Source: Polyangium mundeleinium (GTDB lineage Bacteria; Myxococcota_A; Polyangia; Polyangiales; Polyangiaceae). Taken from it: a stretch of 64,000 bases of DNA. The DNA lies in contig NZ_JAQNDO010000001.1 of assembly GCF_028369105.1 (NCBI RefSeq), positions 2,035,711-2,099,710 of the forward strand. The letters are read 5' to 3'. Made by a program: the position numbers and the translations under genes. The notes under the pieces are model-generated. The model ran no database searches, had not been told where the DNA came from, and was given only the letters and a program-made list of their open reading frames with translations. This document shows, in pieces, positions 5,998 through 61,544 of the stretch (the stretch's first letter is position 1; every line of letters starts with the position of its first letter).

Positions 5998-11949
<5,952 letters not shown>

Positions 11950-33164: not shown

Positions 33165-34211
<1,047 letters not shown>

Positions 34212-40243: not shown

Positions 40244-40499
40244 TCTCCGTGTGCGAGGGATGTGGACCCCTATCGCAACGGGCATGCCAGGGCGGTTGGG
40301 GGCGACGACGTTGGGGCTATCCTGCGGGAAGGAAGGAGGTTTTCTGCTTCGGCGCGCGGCGGCGGAGGACGGGGCGCGTCGGGACCTGGCGGTGGCAGCC
40401 TCCAGGCATGGAGGTGGGAACCGCCAATGGGACCGTCGGCGTGACGAAGCAGGTGGGGGCGGGGCGTCACCCAGGTCCGCGCGCGTGGTGAAGCGGCCA

Positions 40500-40760: not shown

Positions 40761-40774
40761 AGTTCCAGCAGGAT

Positions 40775-40851
40775 GCGGGAGCGGCAAGCGGGAGCGGAGG
40801 CGGAAGCGGGAGCGGAGGCGGAAGCGGAGGCGGAAGCGGCAGCGGCAAGCG
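40775..40851. repeat. intergenic (GCGGRA)n hexamer microsatellite with GCGGCAAGCG variant
   Basis: gcgggagcggcaagcgggagcggaggcggaagcgggagcggaggcggaagcggaggcggaagcggcagcggcaagcg. Confidence 0.8.
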
Positions 40852-41667
40852 ACGGTGAGGCATGACACGAAGAGCTTGCGGGCTTGCGTTCGCAAGTGGC
40901 TTGCGCGTGTCCTGGGAAAATCGGGCCTCGCGGGCAGGATCCAGCACGCGAGCGCTGGGTCATCGTGCTCGCTCGTCGTCGTAATCGTCGAGTTGTGCGT
41001 CGTGGCCGGGGTGCGTGCTCGTGTGGCGTCGCGAGTTGCGTGGTGGGTACGTGGACGCCTTCCGGCGTGCGTGGAGGCGGTCCCGTGAACGCGTTCGCGC
41101 TCCACCGGACGGGCTCGGATGCCGCTGCCAGGGGTTGCGCACATGGCGGCCTGAGAGCGCGAGGGCGAAGCCGAAGTCCCCACCTCGGAGCGGAGCTGCA
41201 CAGGCCAGCAAGCGCCGCCCGCGGGTGAAAGGCCCCACCATTCGGTCAATGACGGGGGACCGCGGGGAGTTCTGCCGTGGCGGACGGTTGTGGATTCTGC
41301 TTGTCGTCGGGCGTAAGTTGTGAGATCTGTTGCCTTGTGAATTGTGGCGCTGTCGCGCGGCTCCGGTCAGCGAACATGCGTATCGGCATTTGCATCTCAC
41401 GGTTCACAGGTAGCAGAACAACGACGCCCAAAGCGCCGCACTCGATGCTGGCAGCAACCGGCCGCTGCTGCCGAATTGCAGAACTCCGCGGGTTCGACGG
41501 CGGCTATATATAGCACGGAATTGTATGGTTAGGCCGCAGGTTATGCGGCGGCAGGCTCATTGCACAGTTGGAACGGCCGAACGAGGGTCGCCCGAGCGAC
41601 GGCGAGTCAAGCAGATGACAAGGTCCGAGAACCCAGCCTCCACTGACCCTCAGCGAATGGCATCGAC

Positions 41668-42450
41668 GTGCTGACCATCCATAAAGCGCAGATGCATGCG
41701 CTGCGTGCGGCGCTCCGCGACGCCTTTGTGGAGCAGATGATCGTTCACCTCGCACGCTTCTCACGCCCGTCCTTCGGGGCCCTGGAGGAGGATCAGAGGC
41801 GGAAGGTCGTTCATCTCGGCCTGGGCAGGGCGGATTCGTACGGTCTCACGTTCGAGGGGCCGGTCCGTCTCTACCTCGAGTTGATGACCCTCTTGGGGAG
41901 CGATTTCGACACGGATCCTCAATACCCTTGGGCCGGCGAGATCCTGAACGCCCGGGACTCGGGCCCCCAGATGCAACGCGCAACCCTGCTCTACCAGAAG
42001 ACGTTGGAGTATCGAACCGCCGTGTTCGGCCCTGGGGATGTGCATACCCTGGACGCGTTCGGAGGAATCCAAGCCCTGGCGCGGCAAGCCTTCGCGCCGC
42101 TCGCGGGAGACCTGGAAACAACTCTGCCACCGTGGATCGCGTCGATCCATCCCCAGAAGGCCGCTTTTCTTGGGTCGGGCGCCCTCGCGGCGCTCGTCCG
42201 TGAGGGGCTCGACAAGGCACGCGTACTAGCATCCTCCACCGATCGCGAGGTCGCTTTCATCGTCGTGTTCATGCTGATGTTCGGCCACGGCTGCATCGAC
42301 GATCCCCTCCATCCGTGGATCGGGCGAGCCTTGAGCAACGACGGAATCACCGAATCAATCGGTCGTGCAAAACGGTTGGAGCAGGGTCTGTCGGCGTGGC
42401 TCGATCAGGCACGCGTTCCGTTCGCCGAGACCAAACACACCTTCAGGTAG
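41668..42450 (+). CDS. hypothetical protein (lower-GC island)
   Basis: 260-aa ORF with a plausible non-Arg-rich composition, followed 4 nt later by the next gene. Confidence 0.5.
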   Translation: MLTIHKAQMHALRAALRDAFVEQMIVHLARFSRPSFGALEEDQRRKVVHLGLGRADSYGLTFEGPVRLYLELMTLLGSDFDTDPQYPWAGEILNARDSGPQMQRATLLYQKTLEYRTAVFGPGDVHTLDAFGGIQALARQAFAPLAGDLETTLPPWIASIHPQKAAFLGSGALAALVREGLDKARVLASSTDREVAFIVVFMLMFGHGCIDDPLHPWIGRALSNDGITESIGRAKRLEQGLSAWLDQARVPFAETKHTFR

Positions 42451-42454
42451 ACAC

Positions 42455-43342
42455 ATGCCGCTAGGATCCGAACCCACGAACCCGGCGCAGGGCACCACTG
42501 CATCGAGCGAAGCTGCGGAAGCGGTGGCGGCATGCCCTCTCGATCGGCTCCAACCCGCCTTGGCGTGGAACGACCAGCTAGGGGGCCTGAACCTGACTTG
42601 GGAGGTGCTCGACTGTGCGCTGCAGAGCGACGTGACCATCGAGGTCTACTTCGCGAGCGGCCCTGCCTACGCGGACCGCCTCGAGACCGCGGTCTTCACG
42701 CATGTGGTCCCCGCCGGCACCGCGGTTGGTCAGGGCGGGCCAGTCCACGTCCCCGGAGGAGATCTCAGCAATGATCCCGCTGGCACGACGCACCTCATCG
42801 CCACGGGCAAGCCGACCACCTTGGTCGGCCCGATCGCAGACGTCCGCATCGTCTTCGGCGCAAACGCGGACGCGGGAGCGGTCTCCGCGGGCATGACGGA
42901 TATTGTCAAGGACGGCCTCCGCGCCGCGGGCGCCGCGGTGGGCACAATCACCAGCACCGCGCGCACGCCCGCCGATCAGGCGCGAGCGATGTTCAACAAC
43001 ATCCAGAATACTGGCACGGCCGAGCAGCAACAGTTGTACGGCCCCGCCGGTGACGCGGTGATCCAGAGATACATCGACGCAACGCAGAACCTGACCCCGG
43101 CCCAGATCCAGGCACAGAGCACGCAGATCCAGCAGGCGATGACCGACGAGATCAATGCTCAGGGACCGGAGAACGTCTCCAGGCACTGCGGCGATCCGGC
43201 GGTCCGCAGCGTGGTCGACATTTCATACAACTCCTTCAACGCGACGAATCGTCCCCTCTTCCGCACTTCAGTCTCCGCCCGTGTGACGCGGCTCCTCGAT
43301 GAGCCGAACAACAACTGCTTCCATCTCGAGCTGACCAACTGA
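42455..43342 (+). CDS. hypothetical protein; weak LAS/M15-peptidase-like motifs (STARTPADQ ... H)
   Basis: Start taken at MPLGSEP (ATG 42455), immediately after the upstream stop; the listed ORF begins earlier at 42365. Confidence 0.45.
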   Translation: MPLGSEPTNPAQGTTASSEAAEAVAACPLDRLQPALAWNDQLGGLNLTWEVLDCALQSDVTIEVYFASGPAYADRLETAVFTHVVPAGTAVGQGGPVHVPGGDLSNDPAGTTHLIATGKPTTLVGPIADVRIVFGANADAGAVSAGMTDIVKDGLRAAGAAVGTITSTARTPADQARAMFNNIQNTGTAEQQQLYGPAGDAVIQRYIDATQNLTPAQIQAQSTQIQQAMTDEINAQGPENVSRHCGDPAVRSVVDISYNSFNATNRPLFRTSVSARVTRLLDEPNNNCFHLELTN

Positions 43343-43837
43343 CGTGACCTTGCCCTACGCCTCGCTGACAACCCGCAGGAATTCACAAGGGTGCGGGCTC
43401 ATCGCCGTGACTCCGGATCCCTGCGGATCGATTCTATGTTGGAGTTGTCGTACACGTCCCACATCGCGCTTCTCCTCGGTCGCATGGCACACCTTTGCGT
43501 TCAAGTGCAGAATCACCCGCTCGTCGACCGTAAGCTGAACGAGCGCGCGCAGGGCGATTGCTTTCGCAAAGCACTCTGGGTCGTCTTGCAATCGCAAGGC
43601 GATGCGGAGCTCTCAAGTGGGGCAACGGAAATGCGCAGTGACTCTCTTGGCTCGTTGCACGATACTCCATATCCGATCGCGTTGTCGGGGCATTGTGTGA
43701 TTCATGTGGATCCGAACCGTGTCCAGATACGGCCCGGAGCGCATTCAAAGAATTGTTTGCTTCAAATGCTGCCAAAAGGGCTGCATTCCTTGCGGCGGTT
43801 GGGCGGGTAGACCGCGATCCCCCAAGCCCACTAATTC

Positions 43838-43872
43838 CAGGCGAGTGACAAACAATCAATCCCCCGGCAAAG
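43838..43872 (-). terminator. intrinsic-terminator-like hairpin on the minus strand (ccccccggctttgccggggg followed by AUUGAUUGUUUGU)
   Basis: 7-8 bp GC stem, 5-nt loop, U-rich tail when read on the minus strand. Confidence 0.4.
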
Positions 43873-44226
43873 CCGGGGGGTTCGATGCTGCGGCCCATGG
43901 TGGATGGCCCCGCCCAGGACATGGACGGACGTGACCCCCGACACATAACAGTCCTCCACCAAACGCCTGGCGGCCGGAGGTCCGTCACTTTTCGCGTTAC
44001 CTTGCCGAAGCCGGCGCCCTCGTTCGATCACGCGGCTGCATCCGTGTCCGTGCCCGTCATAGCGCCGCCCACACCGAAAAAGCAGCGGCCCACGCTGCGG
44101 CGTCCCCTGGTCGACAGCGACAAACAAGGCATCCCCACGAGCGGTTTGTCCGCGGACCAGAAGGGTTCGTCCGCGGACTCTTCCTTCTAGGATCCGAGCC
44201 TCCGAGTGTGCTCAAGTTCGATCCTC

Positions 44227-45432
44227 ATGCGCGTGATCGTGTGCTGTTCGATCTTGCTCCTCGCGTCGCCCGCGGCGCGGGCGCAGAGCCTCCCGAGCGC
44301 CACCGACGAGAGCCCCGAGGCGGACAGGGACCTGGAGTTCCGGGCGTTCGCGCAGCTCGGGGATCACGAGCGCGCCGCGGGGCGGCTGCGCGAAGCCGCC
44401 CGGGCCTACCGCCAGGCGCTCAACGTGCGGTCCGATCCGCTCATCGCGGGGCGTCTCGGGCTCGTGCTGGTCGAGGGCGGCAGGCCCGAGGATGCGACCG
44501 AGCTCCTGCTCTACGCGCTTCATCAGGCCCCCGCCAGGACGCCCGCGGAGCGAGCCGAGCGCAGGCGCTTTTTCGAGGCGCACGAGGTGGCGCGCGCGCA
44601 TGGCTCGTGGGTCGAAGTGATCGTCTCTCACGCGGGCGCGCGTGTGATGGTGGACGGCATCGATCGGAACGCTCTTGGGCGTTCGGCCTTCTGGACGTTC
44701 GTGGCGGGGGGAGAGCACGAGATCCGCGCGACCCTCGACGGCTTCGAAGAGGCGGTCGTGACGTTCACGGCCGTGAAGGGGGAGGACATGAAGGTTCCCG
44801 TCCCCCTGACGGCGCGCACGGTGGAGCAGGAGCCGGCGGTCCATGTCCCCGAAAAGGCCCCGACCGTGACGTTGCCCGTGGTGGTTTCGGGGCCTGGATT
44901 CACGAAACAGGAAGACCCGTTCGCGGATACAGACAAGAAGGGAATGCGGGGTTATGTCGAAGCGGGGCCAGTGGTGGTGTTTGGCGTGGCGTCGTGGATG
45001 CCTGCCGTCGGGGCGACACTCGCCGGAGGGTTGCAGCCCAACGACTACGTTTCGATCGGCCTGGAGGCGCGCGCGGCTTGGCTGACGACGGGCGTCGCGG
45101 ATCGGCCGATCAATGCGATGACGGCGGGCGGAATGGCGACTCTGTGCGGGCACTACAAGTGGTTCTATGGCTGCGCGCTTGGTCATTTGGGCGTAATTCG
45201 TGTCGAATCCACATCGCGTAGCTACAAGCCCGCGAGTTTCGCTGATGTCAAACCCGGAGCGGGTGGGCGCATCGGTGCCAGGGTTCGAGTCACACAGTCC
45301 TTAACGATCCACGGGGCAGTCGACGTCCTCGGACTGTCGAGCGGCGTTCAGGTGGTTGTTGGACCAACGGTCCTCTCCGATCAGCCGCCGGTCATGCTGG
45401 GCGTGCAGATTGGCGGAGGTTGGGAGTTTTAG
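44227..45432 (+). CDS. secreted PEGA-domain protein with a C-terminal beta-rich domain ending GGGWEF (OMP-like C-terminal Phe)
   Basis: Signal MRVIVCCSILLLASPAARAQ; PEGA-like WVEVIVSHAGARVMVDGIDRNALGRSAFWTFVAGGEHEIRATLDGFEEAVVTF. Confidence 0.7.
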   Translation: MRVIVCCSILLLASPAARAQSLPSATDESPEADRDLEFRAFAQLGDHERAAGRLREAARAYRQALNVRSDPLIAGRLGLVLVEGGRPEDATELLLYALHQAPARTPAERAERRRFFEAHEVARAHGSWVEVIVSHAGARVMVDGIDRNALGRSAFWTFVAGGEHEIRATLDGFEEAVVTFTAVKGEDMKVPVPLTARTVEQEPAVHVPEKAPTVTLPVVVSGPGFTKQEDPFADTDKKGMRGYVEAGPVVVFGVASWMPAVGATLAGGLQPNDYVSIGLEARAAWLTTGVADRPINAMTAGGMATLCGHYKWFYGCALGHLGVIRVESTSRSYKPASFADVKPGAGGRIGARVRVTQSLTIHGAVDVLGLSSGVQVVVGPTVLSDQPPVMLGVQIGGGWEF

Positions 45433-45435
45433 GCT

Positions 45436-46425: not shown

Positions 46426-47981
46426 CCGGCGGAGCGGTCGCGTTTGGCCTCTGGGCCATCGCGCGACATTGGCCAGCCTGGGCTGTCGGCGTTGTGGTCG
46501 TCGTGGTGGCCGCGGTGCTCGTCACCTTGCTCGAGTGGATCATCCCGTATTCGCGAGTTTGGGCGAAGCCGCACGGTGACCGGCTCACCGATTTCTGGCA
46601 CCTCGTCTTCTCCAATCGCGCCTTCGACGTCGGCACGCTTGTCGCCATCGGCGTGTTTGCCCCGCTCGGAGAGGCGCTTTCATCTCGGCTCGGCACACGC
46701 CTCTGGCCGCACGGTTGGCCCCTCCCGCTGCAAGCGCTGCTCGCCGTGGTGGTGTTCGAGCTGCCCTGGTATTGGATCCACCGACTCGAGCATCTCTGGG
46801 CCCCCTTGTGGCGCGTGCACTCGGTGCACCACAGCTCGCGTCGGCTCTATTGGTGGAACTTCGCCCGCACCCACCCGCTCGACAACCTGATAAGCGCGGT
46901 CGCCGCCTTCACGCCGCTTTCGTTGCTCGGCGTCGGTGATGAGCCGCTCGCGCTGATGGCGGCCTTCTCCGGCGCGCACGGCATGCTGCAGCACTCGAAC
47001 GTCGATCTTCGCACCGGCTTTCTCGATCTATTTTTCAGCACCGCGCGCGTTCATCGCTGGCACCATTCGCCCCGCCGTCACGAGGCCGATGCCAATTACA
47101 GTCCGAGGGTGATGCTCTGGGATCACGTCTTCGGGAGCTATCGCTTCCGCCCCGACGTCGCTCCACCCGAGGACGTGGGACTCGGCGAGGATGCGGCGGA
47201 ATTTCCCGAGAGCTACGTCGGCCAGCTCCTCGTCCCGTTTCGCTCGGACCATTGGCGCAAGCGCGAGCAGGAGGCGGCCGCTTCACCTCGAGCGCGCCGC
47301 CCCCGTCCGCTTGCTACGGCTTCCTCGTCCCCTCGACGACCATCCCCCCCCGTCCACGGTCATCCCGGTCGCCTTGCCGCCTGCCTCGCGCTTGAACGTC
47401 ACGCGCCAGCCGAGCGTTCCCATCACGAACTCGGTCTCCGACTGCGGGATGAGCTCCTCCTTGGGGAGCCTCGGCGCGAGCATCACGAGGCGCCCGCCCT
47501 CTTGCTTCACCTCCGCCGTGCCGCTCGGACCGTCCGAGTCGAACTGCAGCACGTAGCTGCCCACGACGCCGGCCGCCGACGCCGCGCTGAGCTCGATGGC
47601 CGTCACGCTCGCGCTGGCCGCGGAGTACGGCTGGCCGGATCAAGCATCTGCTCGGCCGTCGCCTGCGAGAGCAGCGCCTTGGACCGCCCGGCGCGCGCGT
47701 CGGCGATCGCGATCGCCCACCGGGCGAGGTCGCTCGCCGTCGTCCAGAGCCCGGCCGGGGCCATCTCCGGATACACGTGCCACCCGCCAGGGATCGTCTC
47801 GCCCTCGCGGAGGTGGGCGCGGGCCGCCTCGTCCGCGCGCGCGGCGGGCAGCGGCTGCTCGAAGGTGCTGTGGGTCATCCCGGCCGGCCCGAACACGAGC
47901 TCCTGCATGAGGGCAGGGAAAGGCTTGCCGGTGACGTCCGTCATGAGCAGCTGCATCACGAGCGTCCCGCCGCCGGAGTAG
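46422..47981 (+). CDS. fatty-acid hydroxylase / sterol desaturase family membrane protein (His boxes HRLEH, HSVHH, HRWHH); the true 3' end probably lies near 47290
   Basis: The ORF has no stop until 47981 and so nominally overlaps two credible convergent genes by about 700 bp; homology-like sequence ends around residue 290. Confidence 0.55.
   Translation: MTGGAVAFGLWAIARHWPAWAVGVVVVVVAAVLVTLLEWIIPYSRVWAKPHGDRLTDFWHLVFSNRAFDVGTLVAIGVFAPLGEALSSRLGTRLWPHGWPLPLQALLAVVVFELPWYWIHRLEHLWAPLWRVHSVHHSSRRLYWWNFARTHPLDNLISAVAAFTPLSLLGVGDEPLALMAAFSGAHGMLQHSNVDLRTGFLDLFFSTARVHRWHHSPRRHEADANYSPRVMLWDHVFGSYRFRPDVAPPEDVGLGEDAAEFPESYVGQLLVPFRSDHWRKREQEAAASPRARRPRPLATASSSPRRPSPPVHGHPGRLAACLALERHAPAERSHHELGLRLRDELLLGEPRREHHEAPALLLHLRRAARTVRVELQHVAAHDAGRRRRAELDGRHARAGRGVRLAGSSICSAVACESSALDRPARASAIAIAHRARSLAVVQSPAGAISGYTCHPPGIVSPSRRWARAASSARAAGSGCSKVLWVIPAGPNTSSCMRAGKGLPVTSVMSSCITSVPPPE
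47283..47606 (-). CDS. DUF3471-like beta-lactamase C-terminal-domain fragment (split from the upstream serine hydrolase; ATGA overlap)
   Basis: AAGVVGSYVLQFDSDGPSGTAEVKQEGGRLVMLAPRLPKEELIPQSETEFVMGTLGWRVTFKREAGGKATGMTVDGGG. Confidence 0.5.
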   Translation of the reverse strand: MTAIELSAASAAGVVGSYVLQFDSDGPSGTAEVKQEGGRLVMLAPRLPKEELIPQSETEFVMGTLGWRVTFKREAGGKATGMTVDGGGWSSRGRGSRSKRTGAARSR

Positions 47982-48664
47982 CGCGAGATCGAGCCCGGGA
48001 CGGCTTCGACGCGCACCGGCTCGGTGTTCGCCGGAGCCGTCCCGTTCAGGATCTGCGCGAGCGTCGGGATCGGCTGGTTCCGCTCGTAGCCGGGGAAGCC
48101 GTAGTTGGTGAGCCCGGCGGTGTGGCTGGCGAGCCGGCGGAGGGTGACCTTCTCCTTCTCGGTGTGCTCGTTGTCGGGCACCTTCCACGTGGTGAGGTAG
48201 CGGTTGACGTCGGTGTCGAGCTCGAGCGTCCCGCGCTCGACGAGGCGGAGCATCGCCGTGGCGGTGACGGGCTTGCTGACGGACCCGGCCTGGAAGAGCG
48301 TGTCGGGCGTGACCGCGTCCTTCGGGTCGGCCGAGCCGGCCGTCTTCACGCCGGCGCCGCGGGCCCACGCGATGCGCCCGCCCTCGATGACGGCGATGCT
48401 GACGCCGGGCACGTGGTGGTGGGCCATGCGCTCTTCGAGCGTCCAGCGGACGGGCGGCCGGCCGGCGATCTCGACGAACGGGCGCAGGCCGCGGAGCACG
48501 TTGGCGACGTGCGGCTCCTGGGCAGCGCTCGTCGGGCCGGCGGCGGAGCTTGCGGTCGAGGTGGTTGCGGGTGGAGCGGTGTGCGTGACAACGGGCCGCA
48601 CGCAGGCAGACAACGTGACCGCTGTGCAGCACAAAAGGGAGAGAGAACGCAGCAAGGGGCCCAT
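47603..48664 (-). CDS. serine hydrolase of the beta-lactamase/PBP (class C-like) family, lipoprotein
   Basis: Lipobox LSAC; FQAGSVSKPVTATAMLRL (SxxK), YSGGG; ATG 48664. Confidence 0.85.
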   Translation of the reverse strand: MGPLLRSLSLLCCTAVTLSACVRPVVTHTAPPATTSTASSAAGPTSAAQEPHVANVLRGLRPFVEIAGRPPVRWTLEERMAHHHVPGVSIAVIEGGRIAWARGAGVKTAGSADPKDAVTPDTLFQAGSVSKPVTATAMLRLVERGTLELDTDVNRYLTTWKVPDNEHTEKEKVTLRRLASHTAGLTNYGFPGYERNQPIPTLAQILNGTAPANTEPVRVEAVPGSISRYSGGGTLVMQLLMTDVTGKPFPALMQELVFGPAGMTHSTFEQPLPAARADEAARAHLREGETIPGGWHVYPEMAPAGLWTTASDLARWAIAIADARAGRSKALLSQATAEQMLDPASRTPRPARA

Positions 48665-48989
48665 CGTGCGGCGAACGAAACCGCGCACGGCGCGTCGGTT
48701 TCCCGCGCGGAGACCTTTTCCCGTGCAGCACGCCTTCGAAAGAGTTTCGGGGTCGTGGTGGTAGGTGCTCGTCGCGGGCGCGGTTCTTTTTCCACCCGGC
48801 GGCCCGCAAAGAGCTGCGAGATGCAATCCGCTTTTATGAGTCGCGAGCCGAAGGGTGCGCCGATGTCAGACCCGGCGTTTTCCTTATGGCATCCTTTCCC
48901 ATGAAACCCGTGGTAGAATAGAAATCATCGCGGTCATGCACATGCGGCGTCATCCGGACCCGTGGAAGATCCGCTGAACAGCGTGACCC

Positions 48990-49055
48990 TTATGCGATAG
49001 GAGCGGAAGCGGGAGCGGGAGCGGCAAGCGAAATCTGTTTGTGTACCGTTCTTGG
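48990..49055. repeat. intergenic (GCGGRA)n element plus conserved downstream motif (GCGGCAAGCGAAATC...TTGTGTACCGTTCTT)
   Basis: Shares GCGGCAAGCGRAATC-N3-TTGTRTACCGTTYT with the element at 50143..50200. Confidence 0.7.
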
Positions 49056-49116
49056 CATTGCACCGTGAAGGGTTGAGCCCCGCCGCCGGCTCGCGTTACC
49101 CTCGGGCGAGCCTGTC

Positions 49117-50121
49117 ATGCCCTCTGCTCACATGCTCGTGCCCGCGGTCCTTGCAGTATCGCTCCTCACGTGCGCGGCGCCTGAGCCCGCGCCTGTGATC
49201 CCTGTTCTGCCCTCGGTTCCCTCGACACCAGGGGCCGTGCCGCCGCGTCCCAACGGCGCGTGCCCGCCTGATTCCCCCGACAAGTACGAGGAGCTCCTCG
49301 CCGCCATGCGCCGCGAGGAGGCCACGCATACGCACGTGGTCCCCGAGCACGACACGCGCTTCGGCGCCGTCGTCTGCAAGGCGAAACAGGGCGTATGGCG
49401 CGATCCCACCGGCCAGGTCCGCGCCTGCACGGTCGCGCGCCCCGTGACGGTGTCCGGCATCGACATCGGCGCCGATGCATACACCCTCTTTCACGCGAAC
49501 GGCCACCCCTGGCAGACCCATGTCGCGCACCCGATCACGTGGAAGACCGCGGCCGGCGTCGTGGTGCCCTGCGCCGCCGATCTCGTGGTCTTCTCCAAAA
49601 CGGGCGCGCTCGAGCACTGCAAGCTCCATCGCCCGATGGTGCTCGACGGCGTCGCCTGCCGCGCCGGCGAGAGCGTCGCCTTTCACCCGGGCGGCCGGCT
49701 CTGGGCCGCGACCATCGACGCGCCGGTCCTTGCGCTGGGCATCACGTTTCCGGAGGGGAAGAGGCTGAGCTGGCACGAGGACGGCTCCTTCGCGGGCGCC
49801 TACGTGACGGAACCATGGGAGATCCAAGGGTTCGTCGTCCGCTCCGACGTGAAGGTCCACCCGAACGGCAAGCTCGCCGAGATCGTGCTGGCGCAGCCAC
49901 GCGACCTCGCGGGCCAGAGCTTTCCGGCAGGCGCCAAGCTCCGCTTCCGCGCGGACGGCACGCTCCAGCGCGCTGACTACGTCTCGAAGCGCGGATTCAT
50001 GATCCACGGCGAGCCGTGGAGCGACACCGTGCACCTCACCTTCGACTGCCACGAGAAGGTCGTGGAATCGCACACGGAGCATTTCCAGGCGGATCACGCG
50101 CCTCACCCGCCGAAGCGGTGA
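49117..50121 (+). CDS. lipoprotein with MORN-variant-like repeats
   Basis: Lipobox SLLTC; repeated h.HpNG..w blocks (FHANGHPWQTHV, FHPGGRLWAATI, WHEDGSFAGAYV, VHPNGKLAEIVL). Confidence 0.7.
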   Translation: MPSAHMLVPAVLAVSLLTCAAPEPAPVIPVLPSVPSTPGAVPPRPNGACPPDSPDKYEELLAAMRREEATHTHVVPEHDTRFGAVVCKAKQGVWRDPTGQVRACTVARPVTVSGIDIGADAYTLFHANGHPWQTHVAHPITWKTAAGVVVPCAADLVVFSKTGALEHCKLHRPMVLDGVACRAGESVAFHPGGRLWAATIDAPVLALGITFPEGKRLSWHEDGSFAGAYVTEPWEIQGFVVRSDVKVHPNGKLAEIVLAQPRDLAGQSFPAGAKLRFRADGTLQRADYVSKRGFMIHGEPWSDTVHLTFDCHEKVVESHTEHFQADHAPHPPKR

Positions 50122-50142
50122 TCACGGCCGGTGCTTTGCGAG

Positions 50143-50200
50143 CAGCGGGGAGCAGAGGCGGAAGCGGCAAGCGGAATCGCCTTGTATACCGTTTTCGAGG
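50143..50200. repeat. intergenic (GCGGRA)n element plus conserved motif (GCGGCAAGCGGAATCGCCTTGTATACCGTTTT)
   Basis: See the 48990 element. Confidence 0.7.
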
Positions 50201-50206
50201 GCCGTG

Positions 50207-50235
50207 TTGACTTGCTTCTGGGCGCAGCATAATCT
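50207..50235 (+). promoter_or_regulatory. sigma70-like promoter TTGACT-N17-TAATCT, 12 nt upstream of the 50248 ATG
   Basis: Read directly: ttgact tgcttctgggcgcagca taatct cgcgcacgcatc ATG. This implies a leaderless or very short leader mRNA. Confidence 0.55.
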
Positions 50236-50247
50236 CGCGCACGCATC

Positions 50248-50919
50248 ATGGCGAACCGAGCCTATCTTCGGTGCCTTCAGGGACGCTCGGATCACGAGGT
50301 CACGGCGGCCTACAGCCTTCCGGACGCGTGGTGCGACCTTTTCGGGCCCTCGGACTTCCATAACGGCAACGACTGTCCGGTGCCGGACGCCTGCAAGCCC
50401 ATCACGACGTCCTATCTCCTCGCGGAAGCACCCGCCGCGCTCGCGCGGTTCGCAGAGCGGATGAAGCGCGCGAAAATCAGGCTCGAAGGAGACGGCCTGA
50501 CGGCCCGGGTCTACGCGTGGCTGACAACCCACTTCGCTGAGGGTTGGCTCTTCGCAGACACGACCGAGCTGGAATGGATGATGGACCACTTCGTCCCCTT
50601 CACCCGGAAACAACTCAAAAGCGCGGAGAAACGAGTGCGGCGCGAGGAACTGACCGCCACGACGCTGCTGGTCGACTTCGGCTGGGGCACCGGGCTCTCT
50701 GCAAAGGAAGTGGAAGAGGAGCTTCGAAGAGCCAGACGGAATCCCCACGACGTCGCGACGCTCGAAGGTCGTCCCTATCGGATCGAGGACACCTACACCG
50801 TGGGGGAAGTCGTCGCGCATCGCGTGTTCGGCTCGGGAACTGTGCGCACGGTCAAAGAGTCGACCGTCACCATTGCGTTCGCCATCGGCACGAAGACGCT
50901 CGCCCACCGCAAGGGCTGA
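50248..50919 (+). CDS. hypothetical protein
   Basis: 223-aa ORF with balanced composition, promoter immediately upstream. Confidence 0.6.
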   Translation: MANRAYLRCLQGRSDHEVTAAYSLPDAWCDLFGPSDFHNGNDCPVPDACKPITTSYLLAEAPAALARFAERMKRAKIRLEGDGLTARVYAWLTTHFAEGWLFADTTELEWMMDHFVPFTRKQLKSAEKRVRREELTATTLLVDFGWGTGLSAKEVEEELRRARRNPHDVATLEGRPYRIEDTYTVGEVVAHRVFGSGTVRTVKESTVTIAFAIGTKTLAHRKG

Positions 50920-50924
50920 GCGCC

Positions 50925-51008
50925 CGGAAGCGGGAGCGGAAGCGGCAAGCGGGAGCGGAGGCGGAAGCGGAAGCGGGAGCGGGAGCGGAAGCGGGAGCGG
51001 AAGCGGAA
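50925..51008. repeat. intergenic (GCGGRA)n hexamer microsatellite, about 14 units
   Basis: ggaagcgggagcggaagcggcaagcgggagcggaggcggaagcggaagcgggagcgggagcggaagcgggagcggaagcggaag. Confidence 0.85.
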
Positions 51009-51048
51009 GATTGTGCCGATGGCAGCGCTTGGCTAGTCTCCGGCCATC

Positions 51049-51792
51049 ATGGCAGACGCGATTCCGTCCCACGTCGTTCAAGCCCTGGCGCCGACCGGAC
51101 GGCTCCGCGCGGCGATCAACTTCGGCAATACCGTCCTGGCGCAGAGAGACCCCATCACCGGCGAGCCGCGCGGGGTCTCCGGCGAGCTCGCGCGCGAATT
51201 CGCCAAACGACTCGGCATCCCGATCGAGTTCGTCACCTTCGACGCCGCTGGCAAGGTATTCGAGGCTTTGAAGCGCGGCGAATGGGACATCGCCTTCCTG
51301 GCGATCGATCCGGTGCGCGCGGCCGAGATCGACTTCACGGGGCCTTATGTGCTGATCGAGGGCGCCTACGTCGTGCCGAAGGACTCGCCCATCAAGACCA
51401 CCGACGAGGTGGACCGCGACGACATCCGTGTCGCCGCCGCCAAGGGCAGCGCGTATGAACTTCATCTGACGCGGACACTCGAGCGCGCCAAAGTCGTCAC
51501 ACAGCCGACCGGCTCCGAGGCCTGCGAGATGTTCCTGCGCGACAAACTGGAGGTCGCCGCCGGCGTGAAGCAGCCGATGACCAAATTCGCCGAGGAGCAT
51601 CCCGAGACGCGCCTGATCCCCGGCCGCTTCATGGCGATCGAGCAGGCGATGGGCATGCCGAAGGGCCGCGACGCAGGCGTGCGCGCGCTCCGCGCGTTCG
51701 TCGAGGAGATGAAGGCGTCCGGCTTCGTCGCGAGGGCACTCGAGCGCAGCGGCCAGAACGAGGCGGTCGTCGCGCCGCCGACGCCGATTTGA
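51049..51792 (+). CDS. ABC-transporter substrate-binding-protein-like (periplasmic binding protein type 3, amino-acid family) protein without an obvious signal peptide
   Basis: RLRAAINFGNTVLAQRDPITGEPRGVSGELAREFAKRLGIPIEFV...DIAFLAIDPVRAAEIDFTGPY. Confidence 0.8.
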   Translation: MADAIPSHVVQALAPTGRLRAAINFGNTVLAQRDPITGEPRGVSGELAREFAKRLGIPIEFVTFDAAGKVFEALKRGEWDIAFLAIDPVRAAEIDFTGPYVLIEGAYVVPKDSPIKTTDEVDRDDIRVAAAKGSAYELHLTRTLERAKVVTQPTGSEACEMFLRDKLEVAAGVKQPMTKFAEEHPETRLIPGRFMAIEQAMGMPKGRDAGVRALRAFVEEMKASGFVARALERSGQNEAVVAPPTPI

Positions 51793-51889
51793 TCCGCGCA
51801 TTCACCGTCGCGGGGGTGGCCCGTCATGGCGGAGGGTGGCGGCTGCCAGGGATGAGCGATGTCGTGCTCGGCAATCGTCGCATGTTTGT

Positions 51890-54800: not shown

Positions 54801-57502
54801 GGGCTCAAGAACCAGCCGGGAGCAAAGAGCTCCTGGAGCACGTCCTGCATGGCGCGGATCTCCGGGTCCACGAGCGGCGGCAGGCCTGGGAGCGCATCGA
54901 GCGTCTTTTCCCGGACGAGATCCATCGTCGCCTGGACTTGGGCGTTGACCATGGATTCGTCGGGGAACGGGGGCAGGTCGAGCCCGAACGGGCGCAGGGC
55001 CGCGAGTCCCTCCGCGAGCGCGGCGGGCAGGTCGTTCTTGAGCACCTGCACGTTCATCTTGAGCCGCAGCACCTCGGTGCGATCGAGCCGGCTCGCGGTC
55101 CGCTCCAGGCTGTCGGAGAGGACCGCGAGGGCGTCGTCGTGCCGGCCGCAGAGCGAGAGCATGAGGCCGGTCTTCTTCGCGTACTCGAGGCGGAGCGGGT
55201 ACTGCGACGTCCAGGCATCCTCGGGAAGGCGCAGGAGGCCGAGCTTCAGGTAGCGCAGGGCGGCGCCGAAGGCGGCCGCGTCCTCGGCGCGGCAGGCGGC
55301 CTCGAGGCTCATGCGGGCGATGCGCAGGCGCTCCGCGGGGTCCGACACGAGGTCGCCCGCGTTGTTCAGGTGGCCGACGACGTCGAAGAGGTTCTGGTTC
55401 TCGGAGAGGTCCAGCTTGCCCGCGAGCAGCCGGCCGATCCGGAGGTGGAAGGCGGGCCGGTCCGCCTCCGGGATCATCGCATAGGCGCCCTCCTGGACCT
55501 TGTCATGAGCGAAGCGGTAGCCCTCGCGGCGGGCGATCACGAGCCCCTCGCTGACGGCGGGATCGAGGCGACCGTACGCGTCTTCCGGCGAGCACTCGCT
55601 CACCGTGGCGAGCACGTCGAGCTCGAACCGGTTGCCGATCGCCGCGGCGAGCTTCAGGGCCGCCTGGGTCGTCGCGGGTAGCCGCGCGATGGTGCGCACC
55701 ATGAGGTCGACGACGTTGTCCGTGTACGCGAGCGCATCGATCTTGGCGAGGTCCCAGCGCCATCCCGACCCGGCTGCGAACGTGAGCACGCCGTGGTCGT
55801 GCAGCGACCGGACGAACTCCTTGACGAAGAACGGGTTGCCGCCGGTCTTCTTCAGCACCGCATCGGCGAACGGCCCGCAGTCGTCGCGCTTGAGGCTGTC
55901 CGAGAGCATCTCGAGCAGGTGCGGGCGCGCGAGCGGGGCGAGGACGATGTCGCGCACGACGAGCCCGGCGTGCTCGAGCTCCTCGATGGCCAGGACGAAC
56001 GGGTGCCCGGGCGAGACCTCGTTGTCGCGGTAAGCGCCGCAGAAGAAGAGCGCCTCGAGCGAGTCGTCGGCGAGGAGCGCCCGGAGCAGCCCGAGGCTCG
56101 CGGGGTCGATCCACTGCAGATCGTCGAGGAACAGGACGAGCGGGTGCGCGTGCCGCGCGAACACCGAGACGAAGAGCAAGAAGCACCGGTTCAGGCGGTT
56201 CTGCGCCTCGACGGGCCCGAGCTCGGGGACGGGCGGCTGCGCGCCGAGCACGTGGGATAACGAGGGGATGACGTCGCAGATCACCTGCCCGTTCGGGCCG
56301 AGCACGTCGAGGAGCAACCGCCGCCACGCCTCGCTCCGCGCCTCGCTCTCGGTGAGGATCTGCCGCACGAGGCCGTCGAACGCCTGGATCACCGCGCTGT
56401 AGGGCGTGTCGCGGTTGTACTGGTCGTATTTGCCGCTCGTGAAATAGCCCTTCTGCCGCGCGAGCGGCTTCAGGATCTCGTGAACGAGCGAGGATTTGCC
56501 GATGCCCGAGTAGCCGGAGACGAGGACGATCTCGCGGCTCCCCGCGAGCGCGCGCTCGAACGCGGCGGTGAGCGCCTCGATGTCATGCTCGCGGCCGTAG
56601 AGCTTCTGGTGGATCCGGAAGAGGTCCTGACGATCGCGCTGGCCCACGACGAAGGGCTCGATCGTCCCCGTGCCGCGCAGGGCCTCACGGCAGCGCTCGA
56701 GGTCGGCGAGCAGGCCCTCGGCGCTCTGGTAGCGGTCCTCGGCGTTTTTCGCGAGCAGCTTGAGCACGACGTCGGAGACGGCCTCGGGGATCGTCGGATC
56801 GACGCGGGACGGCGGCGCGGGCGCGAGGGCGAGGTGCGCGTGGATGAGCTCCATCGGGTCCAGGACCTCGAAGGGGCGCTGACCCGTGAGCATCTGGTAA
56901 AGGATGACGCCGAGCGCATAAAGGTCGGTCCGGTAGTCGACGCCGCGGTTCATGCGGCCGGTCTGCTCGGGGGAGATGTAGGGCAGCACGTCGGCGATCA
57001 CCGCCGGCTCGTAGAGCCGCTCGTGCGCGCGGGTGATCTCGGCGTCGACGCCGAAGTTCTTGATCTTGACCGCGCCGTGCGCGCCGACGAGCACGTTTTG
57101 CGGGCGCAGGTCGCGGTGGACGAGCCCCGCCGCGTGCACCACGGCGAGGCCTTCGGCGAGCGCGGCCGCGAGATCGAGCGCATCGACGACGGGCATTCTG
57201 CGTGACGGACGCGCGGCGAGGATCCGCGCGAGATCGCGGCCCGGGAAGTCCTCGAGGACGACGATCAAGGAGCCCGCGAGCTCCTCGACGCCGCGCAGCG
57301 CGACGAGGCGGGGCGAGGCGATGCGCGCGATGCGCTCGTACTGGTGCTTGAAGCGCGCGACCTCGGCGCGCGTCGATCCTTCCGCGCGGAGGATTTTCAG
57401 CAAAACCGGGACGCCGTCGCCCTCGCGGTACGCGCGGTACAGGCTAAAATCGGCGCTTTCCTCGATCTTCTCCCGGAGCGCGTAGCCTCTCCCGACGACC
57501 AT
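51890..57502 (-). CDS. 1870-aa multidomain sensor: Ser/Thr-kinase-like domain (atypical motifs) - AAA/STAND NTPase - TPR - GAF - PAS - HisKA - HATPase_c
   Basis: HRDLRPQNVLV catalytic loop but NFG instead of DFG and a degenerate Gly loop; Walker A LVSGYSGIGKSSLV; FLSIASHELRTPL (H-box); ITITGEDRVARLSVTDRGIGIP...GGLGLGL (N/G1/G2 boxes). Confidence 0.9.
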   Translation of the reverse strand: MVVGRGYALREKIEESADFSLYRAYREGDGVPVLLKILRAEGSTRAEVARFKHQYERIARIASPRLVALRGVEELAGSLIVVLEDFPGRDLARILAARPSRRMPVVDALDLAAALAEGLAVVHAAGLVHRDLRPQNVLVGAHGAVKIKNFGVDAEITRAHERLYEPAVIADVLPYISPEQTGRMNRGVDYRTDLYALGVILYQMLTGQRPFEVLDPMELIHAHLALAPAPPSRVDPTIPEAVSDVVLKLLAKNAEDRYQSAEGLLADLERCREALRGTGTIEPFVVGQRDRQDLFRIHQKLYGREHDIEALTAAFERALAGSREIVLVSGYSGIGKSSLVHEILKPLARQKGYFTSGKYDQYNRDTPYSAVIQAFDGLVRQILTESEARSEAWRRLLLDVLGPNGQVICDVIPSLSHVLGAQPPVPELGPVEAQNRLNRCFLLFVSVFARHAHPLVLFLDDLQWIDPASLGLLRALLADDSLEALFFCGAYRDNEVSPGHPFVLAIEELEHAGLVVRDIVLAPLARPHLLEMLSDSLKRDDCGPFADAVLKKTGGNPFFVKEFVRSLHDHGVLTFAAGSGWRWDLAKIDALAYTDNVVDLMVRTIARLPATTQAALKLAAAIGNRFELDVLATVSECSPEDAYGRLDPAVSEGLVIARREGYRFAHDKVQEGAYAMIPEADRPAFHLRIGRLLAGKLDLSENQNLFDVVGHLNNAGDLVSDPAERLRIARMSLEAACRAEDAAAFGAALRYLKLGLLRLPEDAWTSQYPLRLEYAKKTGLMLSLCGRHDDALAVLSDSLERTASRLDRTEVLRLKMNVQVLKNDLPAALAEGLAALRPFGLDLPPFPDESMVNAQVQATMDLVREKTLDALPGLPPLVDPEIRAMQDVLQELFAPGWFLSPNNLTIMVAKILENTLRHGLSKHAIYGCITFGTSLCARGDVELGYRFGRAAIDLSERHPDKKSEAMLRHLWGGHVQHWREGYPACQKSLLAGMHAGLETGQYIWAFYNTVNAITNSLLRGLPLSDLLAEAQSYQPICKLDEFDTITWIVDAIGQLAHQLSVETARPAKLKGAWVDIDEVIEESRRMDNLVSTSLAQFYVVLLGVFQGAFEEAARTALSLNIEIPTVVSWQGAAAFHVYAGVALTQAADVVSPDERVLFLARAEIFAKKLSRWADLCPENLAHRSALLDAELARVRGDAHAAWERYDEAIALAQRGGYLHDEALANELAGLSFRALGKTTVACAYLTKAHRAYGRWGATEAMRRLERAYPDLVPSEILRGAMGPEAAAPASTALDLGSVLKASQAISGEIVLERLLDALMRILVENAGARRGVLLLLRDGRLVVEAEHRIGEAAVHVLGAAPLEDRKDLPASVVTYVARTRETVLLDDLAIDGPFGRDPCFAGGAPCSSLAAPLVYKGRLAGVIYLDNDLTRSAFTPDRVEVIRHLSAQAANSIENARLYADLQQENAERRRAEEVLRHSYSLLEATLESTADGILVVDDEQRVVRQNHRFAAMWRIPDEILSTGSDDTFRTFVCDQLLDPETFLQRIRALYASPEKSSFDVIPFADGRIFERYSQPQRLGGRVVGRVWSFRDITARVRAEQQRDQLLLDERRARTAAEEAVQLRDEFLSIASHELRTPLTSLQLAIQSLGQRLARGMDVERVRSAVALSDRQVKRLADLIDMLLDVSRIQAGRLELYPAPVELRALVDEVVAHLGDQIARSGSAIAVRAEQPVIGRWDPHRLEQVVTNLLTNAIKFGERQPIDITITGEDRVARLSVTDRGIGIPAEVQAQLFERFRRGVSSQHYGGLGLGLYITRTIVEAHGGRIRVSSEIGRGSTFCVELPLSTESEGALPLHPTRASALDPTRGIAP

Positions 57503-57571
57503 TGAAGACCTTGCTCACTCGCCCGTGCAAGGCGGCGCATATGACAAGCTACTTATATGCCGAAGGGTGAG

Positions 57572-57654
57572 CAAGTTCGGGGAACGCCAGCCGATAGACA
57601 TCACCATCACCGGAGAAGATCGGGTCGCACGGCTCTCGGTGACGGACCGCGGGA
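57572..57654 (+). repeat. 83-bp inverted copy (1 mismatch) of kinase-gene-internal segment 52167..52249, located 70 nt upstream of the kinase start codon
   Basis: caagttcggggaacgccagccgatAgacatcaccatcaccggagaagatcgggtcgcacggctctcggtgacggaccgcggga equals the reverse complement of 52167..52249 except A/C at one position; followed by the (GCGGRA)n element 57649..57680. Confidence 0.9.
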
Positions 57655-58099
57655 GCGGAGGCGGGCGCGGGAGCGGGAGGGGAAGCCCGCCCCGGTCGTC
57701 CTGCCAGGTGCTTATAGCGTGACGTCGGAGAGTCGCGACATCGATGCTTACAAGGGGAAGCGAACCGCTCTCCCGCTCGATCTCGGCGAGATATGAGCAA
57801 CTCGAAGCCGGCGATATCGATTTCGGCGGCGTACATGTCTCCTTGTGGCGACGGGGGGCGGATGGTGACCGTGATGGTGCGGGGAGCGCGTCCGTCCGCA
57901 GGGGTCCATTGCAGCTTCTGGATTTGCATGGGCGAGGTCATTGCTTGGCGCAGTCCCGGGGACACCGAAGGTCCGCGTGTGGCGCGTCCGGGGCTCGATG
58001 CAAATGGGCACGTTCGAGGCGCGATGGGCCTCGCGCCCCGAAAGCCCTCATCTCTCCTTGCCACCCAGCGGCTCCTGAGGAACCCTGCGAGGCTCGCAG

Positions 58100-61424: not shown

Positions 61425-61544
61425 GCGGGTCTTCTTACCGTCGCCCACCCCGGATGCATAGGGCCAAAGCCGGCCGCCCCGTCGCCCACGCAAGCGCACC
61501 CCTCTGCCCCATGAGCCCACCTCCTTGCTCGCAGAAGGGAGCAC

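Follow-up and report, generated by a model that had tools for sequence, protein, structure and literature searches.

A short, apparently undescribed intergenic repeat with variable hexamer arrays in Polyangium

The window analysed in the present study, a stretch of 64,000 nt of the Polyangium mundeleinium genome, contains a run of genes between which tracts of the hexamer GCGGRA are placed (Table 1). A beta-lactamase-family gene is followed by a divergently transcribed lipoprotein gene (gene X), a gene for a hypothetical protein (gene Y) and a gene for a solute-binding protein, and the three gaps that lie between these four genes are occupied by the elements A, B and C. The gene X product is 100% identical to P. 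mundeleinium protein P0150 and matched no Pfam family, and exact-match protein records were found for none of gene Y, the solute-binding protein, P0001 and P0151. A preliminary description of this DNA had reported five noncoding (GCGGRA)n tracts, and reading of the sequence located all five where they had been placed; TRF called period-6 arrays at 40771-40851, 49000-49024, 50925-51009 and 57649-57683. Allowing at most one mismatch, GCGGRAGCGGRAGCGGRA matched 28 times in the window, always on the plus strand, against 0.03 matches expected from shuffles, and hexamer dimers numbered 22 on the plus strand and 0 on the minus strand. The exact sequence GCGGCAAGCG, herein called the core, occurs on the plus strand five times (40781, 40842, 49021, 50164 and 50942), every time within the tracts, and on the minus strand once, away from them. 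As a conserved feature the core therefore holds for four of the five noncoding tracts, tract E being the one that lacks it. A replication-strand cause of the all-plus bias was considered and rejected, because local GC skew does not track element orientation across loci and because both strands bear arrays at some loci; in the window, local co-orientation is the better reading of the bias.

Table 1. Positions of the repeat elements, their parts, the coding hexamer tracts and the neighbouring genes in the window.
Feature	Position	Strand	Basis or remark
Coding tract, (GCG GAA)n = (Ala-Glu)n	1300..1404	+	in gene 1138-2127, translation
Coding tract, reverse complement = Ala/Ser/Pro linker after lipobox	21668..21733	-	gene 20335-21858, translation
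Coding tract, reverse complement = (APAPES)n linker	26053..26160	-	gene 25134-26450, translation
Element D, partial: 10-unit array between two cores, without box	40775..40851	+	
Beta-lactamase-family gene, left of element A, divergent from gene X	47603..48826	-	Pfam PF00144, E=4.6e-51
Left module beside element A, about 100-130 nt, lower GC	48864..48996	+	nhmmer, alignment
Element A, full copy	48997..49055	+	sequence read, family HMM
Element A array, GCGGAA GCGGGA GCGGGA	49003-49020	+	
Element A core, GCGGCAAGCG	49021-49030	+	
Element A box, AAATCTGTTTGTGTACCG	49031-49048	+	
Element A tail, TTCTTGG	ends 49055	+	
Gene X, lipoprotein, 334 aa, between elements A and B	49117..50121	+	
Element B, full copy, short degenerate array	50143..50200	+	sequence read, HMM
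Element B array remnant	50146-50163	+	
Element B core	50164-50173	+	
Element B box, GAATCGCCTTGTATACCG	50174-50191	+	
Element B tail, TTTTCGAGG	ends 50200	+	
Likely promoter of gene Y, TTGACT-17 nt-TAATCT, ATG 12 nt past second hexamer	50207..50235	+	conservation
Gene Y, hypothetical protein, 223 aa, between elements B and C	50248..50919	+	
Element C	50924..51022	+	
Element C first array, three units	50924-50941	+	
Element C core	50942-50951	+	
Element C second array, 10 perfect units	50949-51008	+	
Element C degenerate box, GATTGTG--CCGATGG	51009-51022	+	
Solute-binding protein gene (SBP_bac_3), right of element C	51049..51792	+	Pfam, E=8.9e-18
Tract E, degenerate 6-unit array, without core or box	57649..57684	+	

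Elements A and B are the two full copies, and the motif said to follow both of their tracts is exact at 49039-49050 and 50182-50193. The family HMM matched element A at 49021-49054 (E=1.7e-7), and core, box and right flank are the same at a locus of P. jinanense (L030). From the end of its box to the ATG of gene X (49117) there are 68 nt, and the module on its left, whose last bases are ...CCCTTATGCGATAGGAGCG, includes a 13-codon mini-ORF and an extended -10-like site, TGGTAGAAT. Only about three units are recognisable in the degenerate array of element B, which the HMM matched at 50164-50200; its box ends 56 nt before the ATG of gene Y (50248) and 15 nt before the conserved -35 hexamer of this gene. 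The block to which this hexamer belongs is likely the promoter of gene Y and does not belong to element B. The assignment was made from conservation, because the consensus scan did not call a promoter there: at a locus without array or box (L043), where the gene Y homologue is 87% identical, a TTGAC-17-TARTCT block is conserved upstream, and gene Y homologues outside the clade (at most 87% amino-acid identity) keep the promoter and lack array and box. For element C, 41 nt separate the array end from the ATG at 51049, and its degenerate box includes TTGTGC (51011-51016), 17 nt ahead of TAGTCT (51034-51039). The gaps between supported genes that elements B and C occupy measure 126 and 129 nt.

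The statement that each tract lies just upstream of a gene is borne out for elements A, B and C, all of which are 40-70 nt upstream of co-oriented start codons, and fails for D and E on the distances to starts. Element D is about 490 nt upstream of the start of a matrixin gene, which is encoded on the opposite strand, and the next predicted plus-strand gene follows only after about 830 nt; its cores are at 40781-40790 and 40842-40851, and a search of the locus gave no box. At 40876-40910, 3' of element D, there are GCTTGCG motifs, which correspond to the centre of the core in reverse complement, and one unrelated terminator-like site lies near the element. After tract E, the next supported plus-strand gene is a lipoprotein gene starting at 58100, not at 57793, and the membership of this tract in the repeat family is doubtful. 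The hexamer tracts within genes are real and coding, as had been described; their grouping with the noncoding tracts is not upheld, since the search for core and box found neither in them and they encode ordinary low-complexity linkers. Taken together, three to four of the five noncoding tracts belong to one short DNA repeat that is apparently undescribed and almost confined to Polyangium.

The repeat family extends beyond the window. On the G-rich strand, the consensus copy consists of at least 2-3 GCGGRA units (up to about 30), the variant unit GCGGCAAGCG and a fixed unit, RAATC-N3-TTGTGTACCG-YTYNNGAGG, and the Polyangium form reads GCGGCAAGCG-RAATC-N3-TTGTGTACCG-YT..GAGG; the fixed sequence covers about 37 nt in most copies and reaches about 145 nt in a subfamily. 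Scanning of 185,579 species genomes with a strict array-plus-core pattern returned 30 loci, about 21 of them in Polyangium or Polyangiaceae. The loci on the Polyangium side come from P. jinanense, P. fumosum, Polyangium spp. 6x1, 15x6 and y55x31 and MAGs, and the non-Polyangium loci lack the box. The strict pattern gave 2-6 matches per genome, with more variant copies in the same loci, although copy number and clustering are biased because the loci were retrieved by searching for the element itself. The motif shared by A and B recurs outside the window, contrary to the refuting condition set out in the preliminary description, with 25 boxed copies counted (five of them on metagenome contigs), in which array and core are always 5' of the box. 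With at most one mismatch, the box was found in at least 20 copies, always after array and core, and five copies had not been used for locus retrieval. A long-form HMM identified 29 sites, 28 of which start at the core and most of which end at 33-39 nt. The arrays are intergenic in 39 of 42 cases, the right-hand neighbour is co-oriented in 21 and convergent in 13 of 34 (a split that is not significant), and the boxes within one locus are all in direct orientation. Over the family as a whole, the element shows no fixed association with gene starts. Conservation within the element is highest in the box, and the conservation of its 18 nt across species suggests that something recognises it. Viral contigs yielded no copy, and no description of this repeat was found in the searchable literature. 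The earlier suggestion of a miniature repeat family is thus supported, as the unit of array, core and box is present in at least six Polyangium species and on metagenome contigs, beside unrelated flanks.

Array length differs widely between species. The left module of element A was also found by nhmmer in three other species (L022, L021 and L029), where it flanks arrays of about 2, 9 and 29 units, making about 2, 4, 9 and 29 units in the four species that share this locus. Across species, element B has 3, 3 and 8 units, its orthologous copies being those of P. jinanense (L004, about 8) and Polyangium sp. 6x1 (L005, about 3), and element C has 14, 5 and about 13. The array length is equal in two near-identical metagenome strains with 98.7% identity in the flanks. 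Of 31 copies, 27 have a perfect unit next to the core, compared with 2-3 at units 9-12. We infer that the array grows and shrinks by replication slippage, chiefly at the end near the core. The idea of slippage-prone contingency tracts hence survives in its first half, as polymorphism in length (one locus spans about 2 to 29 units), and not in the contingency switch. G-quadruplex formation was rejected as a defining property of the arrays, because the motif (four runs of at least three G, 1-7 nt apart) is present in 10 of 61 array segments only and the commonest unit, GCGGAA, has GG only.

The flanks of the elements were compared between genomes. Between species, homology ends at the elements, and in all 17 flank-sharing pairs, one side only is shared. 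Internal ends of homology blocks lie within 60 nt of an array in 22 of 68 cases (20 of these within 15 nt), compared with 3.4 +/- 1.7 for random positions, and this enrichment is overstated, because random positions do not allow for a preference of breaks for intergenic DNA. Mosaicism is also general in the region, as some breaks fall inside genes or off the arrays, e.g. at 47264, 51952 and 57558. At element A, the DNA of the beta-lactamase-family gene in Polyangium sp. 15x6 (L022) is 96% identical up to the array, and beyond it the loci differ. The segment 50147-51007 is 94-95% identical to L004 and L005, and homology is absent on either side; the junctions orthologous to element C in these two loci have different array lengths and unrelated right flanks. 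Gene Y behaves as a single unit, with different neighbours in each of the three species. The 88% homologue of gene X in Polyangium sp. 6x1 is on another contig than the gene Y homologue of that strain, and the element is absent from homologues of gene X that are at most 62% identical. At tract E, homology with the kinase loci L001 and L002 breaks about 80 nt away, not at the tract. In these kinase orthologue loci, synteny stops at the kinase gene and arrays are absent, and they are therefore usable only as an array-free sample. The search for an empty site through gene Y homologues (at most 87% identity) gave unrelated left flanks, and the comparison upstream of orf45301 gave no clean alignment.

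Several features expected of mobile DNA were also searched for. No recurrent transposase or recombinase was found near the elements, the recurrent families being kinases and flank orthologues only, and no ORF between 37.5 and 61.4 kb was matched by Pfam to a recombinase. No terminal inverted repeat involving box or core was detected in five copies, and no target-site duplication was visible around minimal copies, where the array end is fuzzy. These negative results for a mobilising enzyme, terminal inverted repeats and target-site duplications count against the interpretation that is proposed next.

Herein, we propose, with moderate confidence, that A, B, C and the truncated D are copies of a noncoding interspersed repeat restricted to a Polyangium subclade, which carries a slippage-prone tail and acts as, or marks, a recombination junction. 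The dispersed arrays would serve as portable homology patches for the exchange, deletion and insertion of gene-sized segments, and through such events the neighbours on the two sides would come to differ from species to species. The right edge of the fixed unit is discrete against at least 10 unrelated flanks, and the unit must therefore also have reached new sites by being copied whole. Effects of the elements on the adjacent promoters (those of genes X and Y and of the solute-binding protein gene) would, if present, be incidental. A bolder form of this proposal, which makes the co-oriented G-rich arrays the operative component of a system of cassette exchange, is speculative and in our opinion distinctly unlikely. 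Recombination between two arrays would release the segment between them (box, promoter and gene) as a circle, which could re-enter at any other array. The target array could be in the same or a related genome, the exchange could be driven by RecA or by an enzyme recognising core and box, transcription-induced structures on the G-rich strand might help as in immunoglobulin switch regions, and single genes such as X and Y would be shuffled among loci and species.

Different roles for the element were weighed against the recombination-junction proposal. It might be a portable cis-regulatory module (a mobile promoter or operator), in which the box TTGTGTACCG is a transcription-factor site or a -35-like hexamer, while the array serves upstream as a spacer or a platform for binding and tunes the promoter just downstream. 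The short distances from A, B and C to co-oriented start codons, the position of the element B box 15 nt before the -35 hexamer, the TTGTGC that the degenerate box of C supplies 17 nt before TAGTCT, the 21 co-oriented right-hand neighbours of 34 and the box as the most conserved portion of the element are all consistent with such a role. We nevertheless regard it as rather unlikely, since 13 of the 34 copies point towards a convergent gene at its 3' end and 21:13 is not significant, a -10-like hexamer at constant spacing from the box is missing from most copies, the consensus promoter scan was negative at A-C, the gene Y promoter is intact in an element-free homologue, and the genes downstream of the copies have no common function or family. 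It is improbable that the element acts as RNA. In such a role, core and box would fold into a small hairpin (AGCGG...CCGYU) that in many copies has a U-rich run behind it, the array would present repeated GGA motifs, and the element would work as a terminator or attenuator, as a leader bound by a protein or, if the opposite strand is transcribed, as a C-rich site for Rho loading. Across 18 copies, an interrupted hairpin of nine pairs is possible in 98% of cells, and one-sided changes all preserve G-U or G-C pairing, which is true of the G-rich strand only; however, there are no compensatory changes, shuffles score equally and folding energies are ordinary (z -1.8 to +0.4). A T-rich run follows CCG in about half of the copies and several copies begin 6-40 nt past the stop codon of a co-oriented gene, but the terminator scan was negative at A-C and the relation to the direction of transcription is not constant. 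Rfam 15 gave no match at the gathering score in the window or at E<=1 in 48800-51100, and a chance hit was seen only in L007.

Even less can be said for the possibility that the element is a decayed coding fragment, which we consider very improbable. On the C-rich strand, box, core and array read ...TVHKQISLAA(AP/AS)n, and every copy keeps this frame open; genes 20335-21858 and 25134-26450 also use this hexamer to encode AP and AS linkers. Four long copies have MQILLKIAPLVLALAS ahead, resembling a signal peptide followed by an Ala-Pro/Ala-Ser linker, together with an ATG, a GGAGG-like site and a hydrophobic N-terminus. However, most copies have no start codon in frame, the ORFs enter Arg/Pro-rich, out-of-frame-like sequence or stop within a few codons, the variation of the box shows no third-position pattern, and B and C are confined to their 126- and 129-nt gaps between supported genes. 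The least probable reading is that the arrays are contingency loci, at which gain or loss of hexamers switches the adjacent gene on or off; the tandem short units and their clear length variation between species speak for it. This switch is largely refuted by tract position and unit size: six-base steps preserve the reading frame, tracts A and B end at least 40 nt upstream of the -35 hexamer, and tract C abuts the promoter spacer and does not enter it. The tracts also include a conserved non-repetitive unit, their neighbours are unrelated genes, 3' ends included, and the array length is the same in the two near-identical metagenome strains.

The repeat shares properties with several known systems and is identical to none of those compared. 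REP/BIME and ERIC sequences, which have many copies per genome, are likewise short, noncoding units that are almost always intergenic, lineage-specific, present in either orientation and located at rearrangement points. However, REP and ERIC units are imperfect palindromes, whereas no inverted repeat was found in the Polyangium unit, which has a weak, unproven hairpin and a microsatellite on one side, and REPs are tied to RAYT transposases, whereas no RAYT-like gene was seen near the Polyangium elements. MIRU-VNTR loci are also dispersed intergenic tandem loci of varying copy number, often between co-oriented genes, but MIRU units measure about 40-100 bp and make up the entire locus, compared with a unit of 6 bp plus a unique 37-nt sequence of fixed polarity in Polyangium. 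MITEs (e.g. Correia elements) are similarly small and non-autonomous-looking, with a discrete boundary, beside unrelated sequence and near promoters; the terminal inverted repeats of MITEs were not found in the Polyangium repeat, and no target-site duplication was seen around its minimal copies. Putative mobile promoters resemble it in that unrelated genes, within a genome and in its relatives, have one and the same short intergenic sequence upstream, but at least one third of the Polyangium copies face no gene start, and the microsatellite part is foreign to that class.

The likeness to integron attC sites and cassettes lies in a recurring short site that separates single co-oriented genes (gene X, gene Y and the gene for the solute-binding protein), in homology between genomes that ends at the site and in neighbours that differ by species. 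In contrast to attC, the consensus unit has no R''/L''-L'/R' inverted-repeat structure and no GTTRRRY core; integrase and attI were not seen in the window, some Polyangium "cassettes" are multi-gene and on both strands, and the cassette genes have their own promoters. Two more distant analogies may be drawn. The C-rich strand could be compared with eukaryotic SINE/non-LTR retroposons, having a defined body followed by a (TYCCGC)n tail and nested copies that share the tail-proximal end, although neither reverse transcriptase nor target-site duplication was found and most copy lengths cluster at about 37 nt and are not randomly truncated. Immunoglobulin switch regions might be considered similar in their G-rich short tandem repeats, which are locally co-oriented and at which junctions occur, but no sign of R-loops was found for the Polyangium arrays.

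The genomes of Polyangium and Sorangium are among the largest bacterial genomes (12-16 Mb), and to our knowledge the reshuffling of gene order in these genera is poorly understood. The arrays described herein are ready VNTR-type markers for typing Polyangium isolates, and the 18-nt box is a defined candidate target for a binding protein. If the repeat is neutral, it would still be a useful example of a bacterial interspersed repeat seeding microsatellites. If cassette exchange were true, it would represent a new, myxobacterial route of gene mobility without integron-type sites or integrase. As a recombination junction, the repeat is a concrete candidate for the recombination substrate behind the plasticity of these genomes.

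The five non-coding tracts lie where the preliminary description had placed them (A to E in the table), with period-6 arrays called there by TRF, and the conserved core ascribed to these tracts, the variant unit GCGGCAAGCG, was found in A, B, C and D but not in E. At a window G+C of ~69%, 28 GCGGRA trimers (at most one mismatch) were observed where shuffles predict 0.03, every one of them lying on the + strand, and GCGGRA dimers numbered 22 on the + strand and 0 on the - strand. Exact GCGGCAAGCG occurred at five + strand sites, all within A-D and two of them in D, and at one - strand site outside the tracts. A position just upstream of genes was confirmed for A, B and C, which have co-oriented genes directly 3', but not for D and E, from which the nearest supported + strand gene starts lie ~830 and ~420 nt away, respectively.

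Gene order around the tracts, from Pfam and a codon-usage gene call
Feature	Position	Strand
Matrixin	38942-40285	-
Element D	40775	+
ORFs without Pfam families, also a TPR/PEGA protein	about 41.6-46.3 kb	
Fatty-acid hydroxylase	46422-	+
Beta-lactamase-family gene	47603-48826	-
Element A	48997	+
Gene X, lipoprotein	49117-50121	+
Element B	50143	+
Gene Y	50248-50919	+
Element C	50924	+
Solute-binding protein gene	51049-51792	+
Kinase	51890-57502	-
Tract E	57649	+
Lipoprotein	58100-59398	+

The window derives from P. mundeleinium or a near-identical strain: the gene X product matches a P. mundeleinium protein at 100% identity, and the cluster representative of the large kinase is 94% identical. 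The hydroxylase ORF, extending to 47981, overlaps the beta-lactamase-family gene by ~380 nt; its P. jinanense counterpart shows 98.6% identity over the first 281 aa, where homology ends mid-gene, and the reading frame in the window may be a fusion or have been called too long. Between D and A, G+C falls to 62.9% at 42001-44000 (~68-70% elsewhere in the window), the ORFs there (41668-42450, 42560-43342, 43434-43988) have no Pfam family, and this stretch may be acquired DNA.

The motif shared by A and B is not confined to this window. A scan of 185,579 species (one genome each) for GCGGRAGCGGRAGCGGCAAGCG returned only 30 loci, of which ~21 were from Polyangium or Polyangiaceae, the carriers being P. 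jinanense, P. fumosum, spp. 6x1, 15x6 and y55x31, and MAGs. The box, RAATC-N3-TTGTGTACCG, followed the core in most Polyangium matches and in none of those from other phyla; its recurrence at other Polyangium loci is the outcome that the preliminary description had itself required of a real family. Across all fetched DNA, at least 20 true boxes were found, each with array and core on its 5' side, including five that had played no part in retrieving their locus, and a metagenome scan for core plus box added five contigs. The consensus is (GCGGRA)n-GCGGCAAGCG-AAATCTG-N-TTGTGTACCG-YTYNNGAGG. An HMM built on the long subfamily matched 29 sites, with the alignment starting at the core in 28 and ending mostly after 33-39 nt (seven reach ~145 nt); thus, the polarity of the element is fixed, its right end is discrete and abuts at least 10 unrelated flanks, and its left end, made of the array, varies.

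Several variants accompany this form. Copies extending ~145 nt beyond the core (…GAGGCTAGAGCGAGGACTAACGGCGCGATCTTCAACAGGATTTGCATGG…) were observed at L007 2150-2297(-), L022 5076-5221(-), L026 4125-4256(-), L031, L033 and L035; on the opposite strand, four long copies carry GGAGG, ATG and a signal-peptide-like MQILLKIAPLVLALAS running into box and array. In P. jinanense (L004 1620-1745, - strand), a further tandem array, (GCGTGCGCTTGC)n, comes after the orthologue of array C. Downstream of D (40876-40910), the window holds several copies of GCTTGCG, which is the core centre in reverse complement; this right flank is also found behind arrays in L021 and L026.

The array is a microsatellite whose length varies between species. 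The module left of A (48864-48996, ~100-130 nt) is 83-96% conserved beside arrays in spp. 15x6 and 6x1 and P. jinanense, with differing outer flanks, and the arrays behind it count ~4, 2, 29 and 9 units across the four genomes; B has ~3, 3 and 8 units in its three carriers, and C ~14, 5 and 13. The module also holds an extended -10-like TGGTAGAAT and a 13-codon ORF (MHMRRHPDTWKIR), of which sp. 6x1 keeps the stop codon and two synonymous changes. Of 31 copies, 27 have perfect core-adjacent units, and purity drops with distance from the core, as expected if units arise near the core and older ones decay. Two near-identical metagenome strains differ by one A/G substitution at equal length, so array change is not extremely fast. 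The slippage-prone tract of the preliminary description is supported as length polymorphism; a contingency switch is ruled out by the six-base steps and the site upstream of the -35 hexamer.

Homology breaks were associated with the elements. The gene Y segment from array B to array C (50147-51007) is 94-95% identical in P. jinanense and sp. 6x1 but is bordered, left and right, by different DNA in each of the three genomes. On the left of A, the beta-lactamase-family gene and the flank show 96% identity in sp. 15x6, where the right side is different; in P. jinanense, the box and gene X leader that form A's right side lie behind another left flank. All 17 flank-sharing pairs are common on one side only, these pairs being non-independent and representing ~7 distinct junction families. 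After the arrays had been masked, 22 of the 68 internal block ends of the homology comparison lay within 60 nt of an array (20 within 15 nt), against 3.4 +/- 1.7 for random positions in the same loci, which were chosen for holding elements; breaks would favour intergenic DNA anyway. The association is real in these loci; mosaicism is a general trait of the region, some breaks lying within genes or off arrays (47264, 51952 and 57558). In a metagenome relative (L038 2881-6672), a 72% identical gene Y homologue without arrays adjoins VgrG and DUF2169/pentapeptide genes (type VI secretion context) as well as a bacteriophytochrome operon.

A regulatory role was also considered. The likely promoter of gene Y (50207-50235; TTGACT, 17 nt, TAATCT) is kept in an 87%-identical homologue without array or box and is thus independent of the element just upstream. 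At C, the degenerate box gives TTGTGC 17 nt before TAGTCT. The element may affect regulation locally, but this cannot be its general role. Orientation bound to gene starts was not borne out: read on the G-rich strand, 21 right neighbours were co-oriented and 13 convergent, and the left neighbours comprised 16 on + and 15 on -. Element orientation was likewise not tied to replication skew.

A structured RNA is unproven: a small hairpin of the last array unit and core with the box end can form in 98% of cells, but compensatory changes were not found, folding energy was ordinary, and Rfam gave no match. A G-quadruplex family was rejected, the canonical motif occurring in just 10 of 61 arrays. The C-rich strand reads TVHKQISLAA(AP/AS)n, to which the four long copies add their signal-peptide-like start; for the family, a coding element was rejected, as a start codon or a sensible continuation is missing from most copies, although a coding origin is conceivable. 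Three hexamer tracts reported in coding DNA are truly coding, but they lack core and box and are not copies; they are low-complexity linkers, (Ala-Glu)n on the + strand and Ala-Ser/Ala-Pro on the - strand, having the hexamer but not the element in common with A-D.

Other repeats occur in the window. Another in-frame linker is encoded at 58206-58245 (perfect 12-bp x 3.3 repeat, CGCAAGCACCGC), giving (QAPP)n immediately behind the lipobox in lipoprotein gene 58100-59398. Directly 3' of the (Ala-Glu)n hexamer tract, gene 1138-2127 holds a 42-bp x 6.1 tandem repeat (1437-1694, 94% matches), which is translated into repeats of 14 residues (…ASAAKASEEVREAR…). Very large Cys-rich repeat proteins, EGF-like by sequence, are encoded at 5998-12360(-) and 12318-14282(+), with tandem repeats of 165 bp x 13 (7676-9861) and 123/246 bp x 8 (12633-13610). 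An unusually long (CCG)60 tract (33984-34163, 85% matches) adjoins (TCC)n-like repeats (33929-34027), and a nested 21/42/85-bp repeat with 18 copies of the 21-mer (61537-61924) adjoins an AAA_21 (AbiEii-like) ATPase gene (60192-61448, -). The C-terminal PPPPPKKKKKKKRI of gene 25134-26450(-) derives from a T/C-rich run (TCTTCTTTT x 2.6; 25134-25183), unusual for a ~69% G+C genome.

Among known kinds, the element comes closest to REP/BIME/ERIC-type repeats, MIRU-type VNTRs, MITEs and putative mobile promoters, and in behaviour only to integron attC sites; it did not show the defining structural features of these that were testable here. Terminal inverted repeats were not found in it, nor a recurrent neighbour gene able to mobilise it, nor, by Pfam, a recombinase in the window gene cluster; an earlier description of the element was not found in the searchable literature. 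We rate the element as a variant among bacterial interspersed intergenic repeats. Herein, we propose a lineage-specific non-coding interspersed repeat consisting of a ~37-nt unique unit and a slippage-prone hexamer tail; the descriptive part of this reading is well supported. We infer that a copying mechanism spread the unit and that recombination between dispersed arrays caused the mosaic, in which the copies would be recombination junctions, or markers of them, between gene-sized segments.
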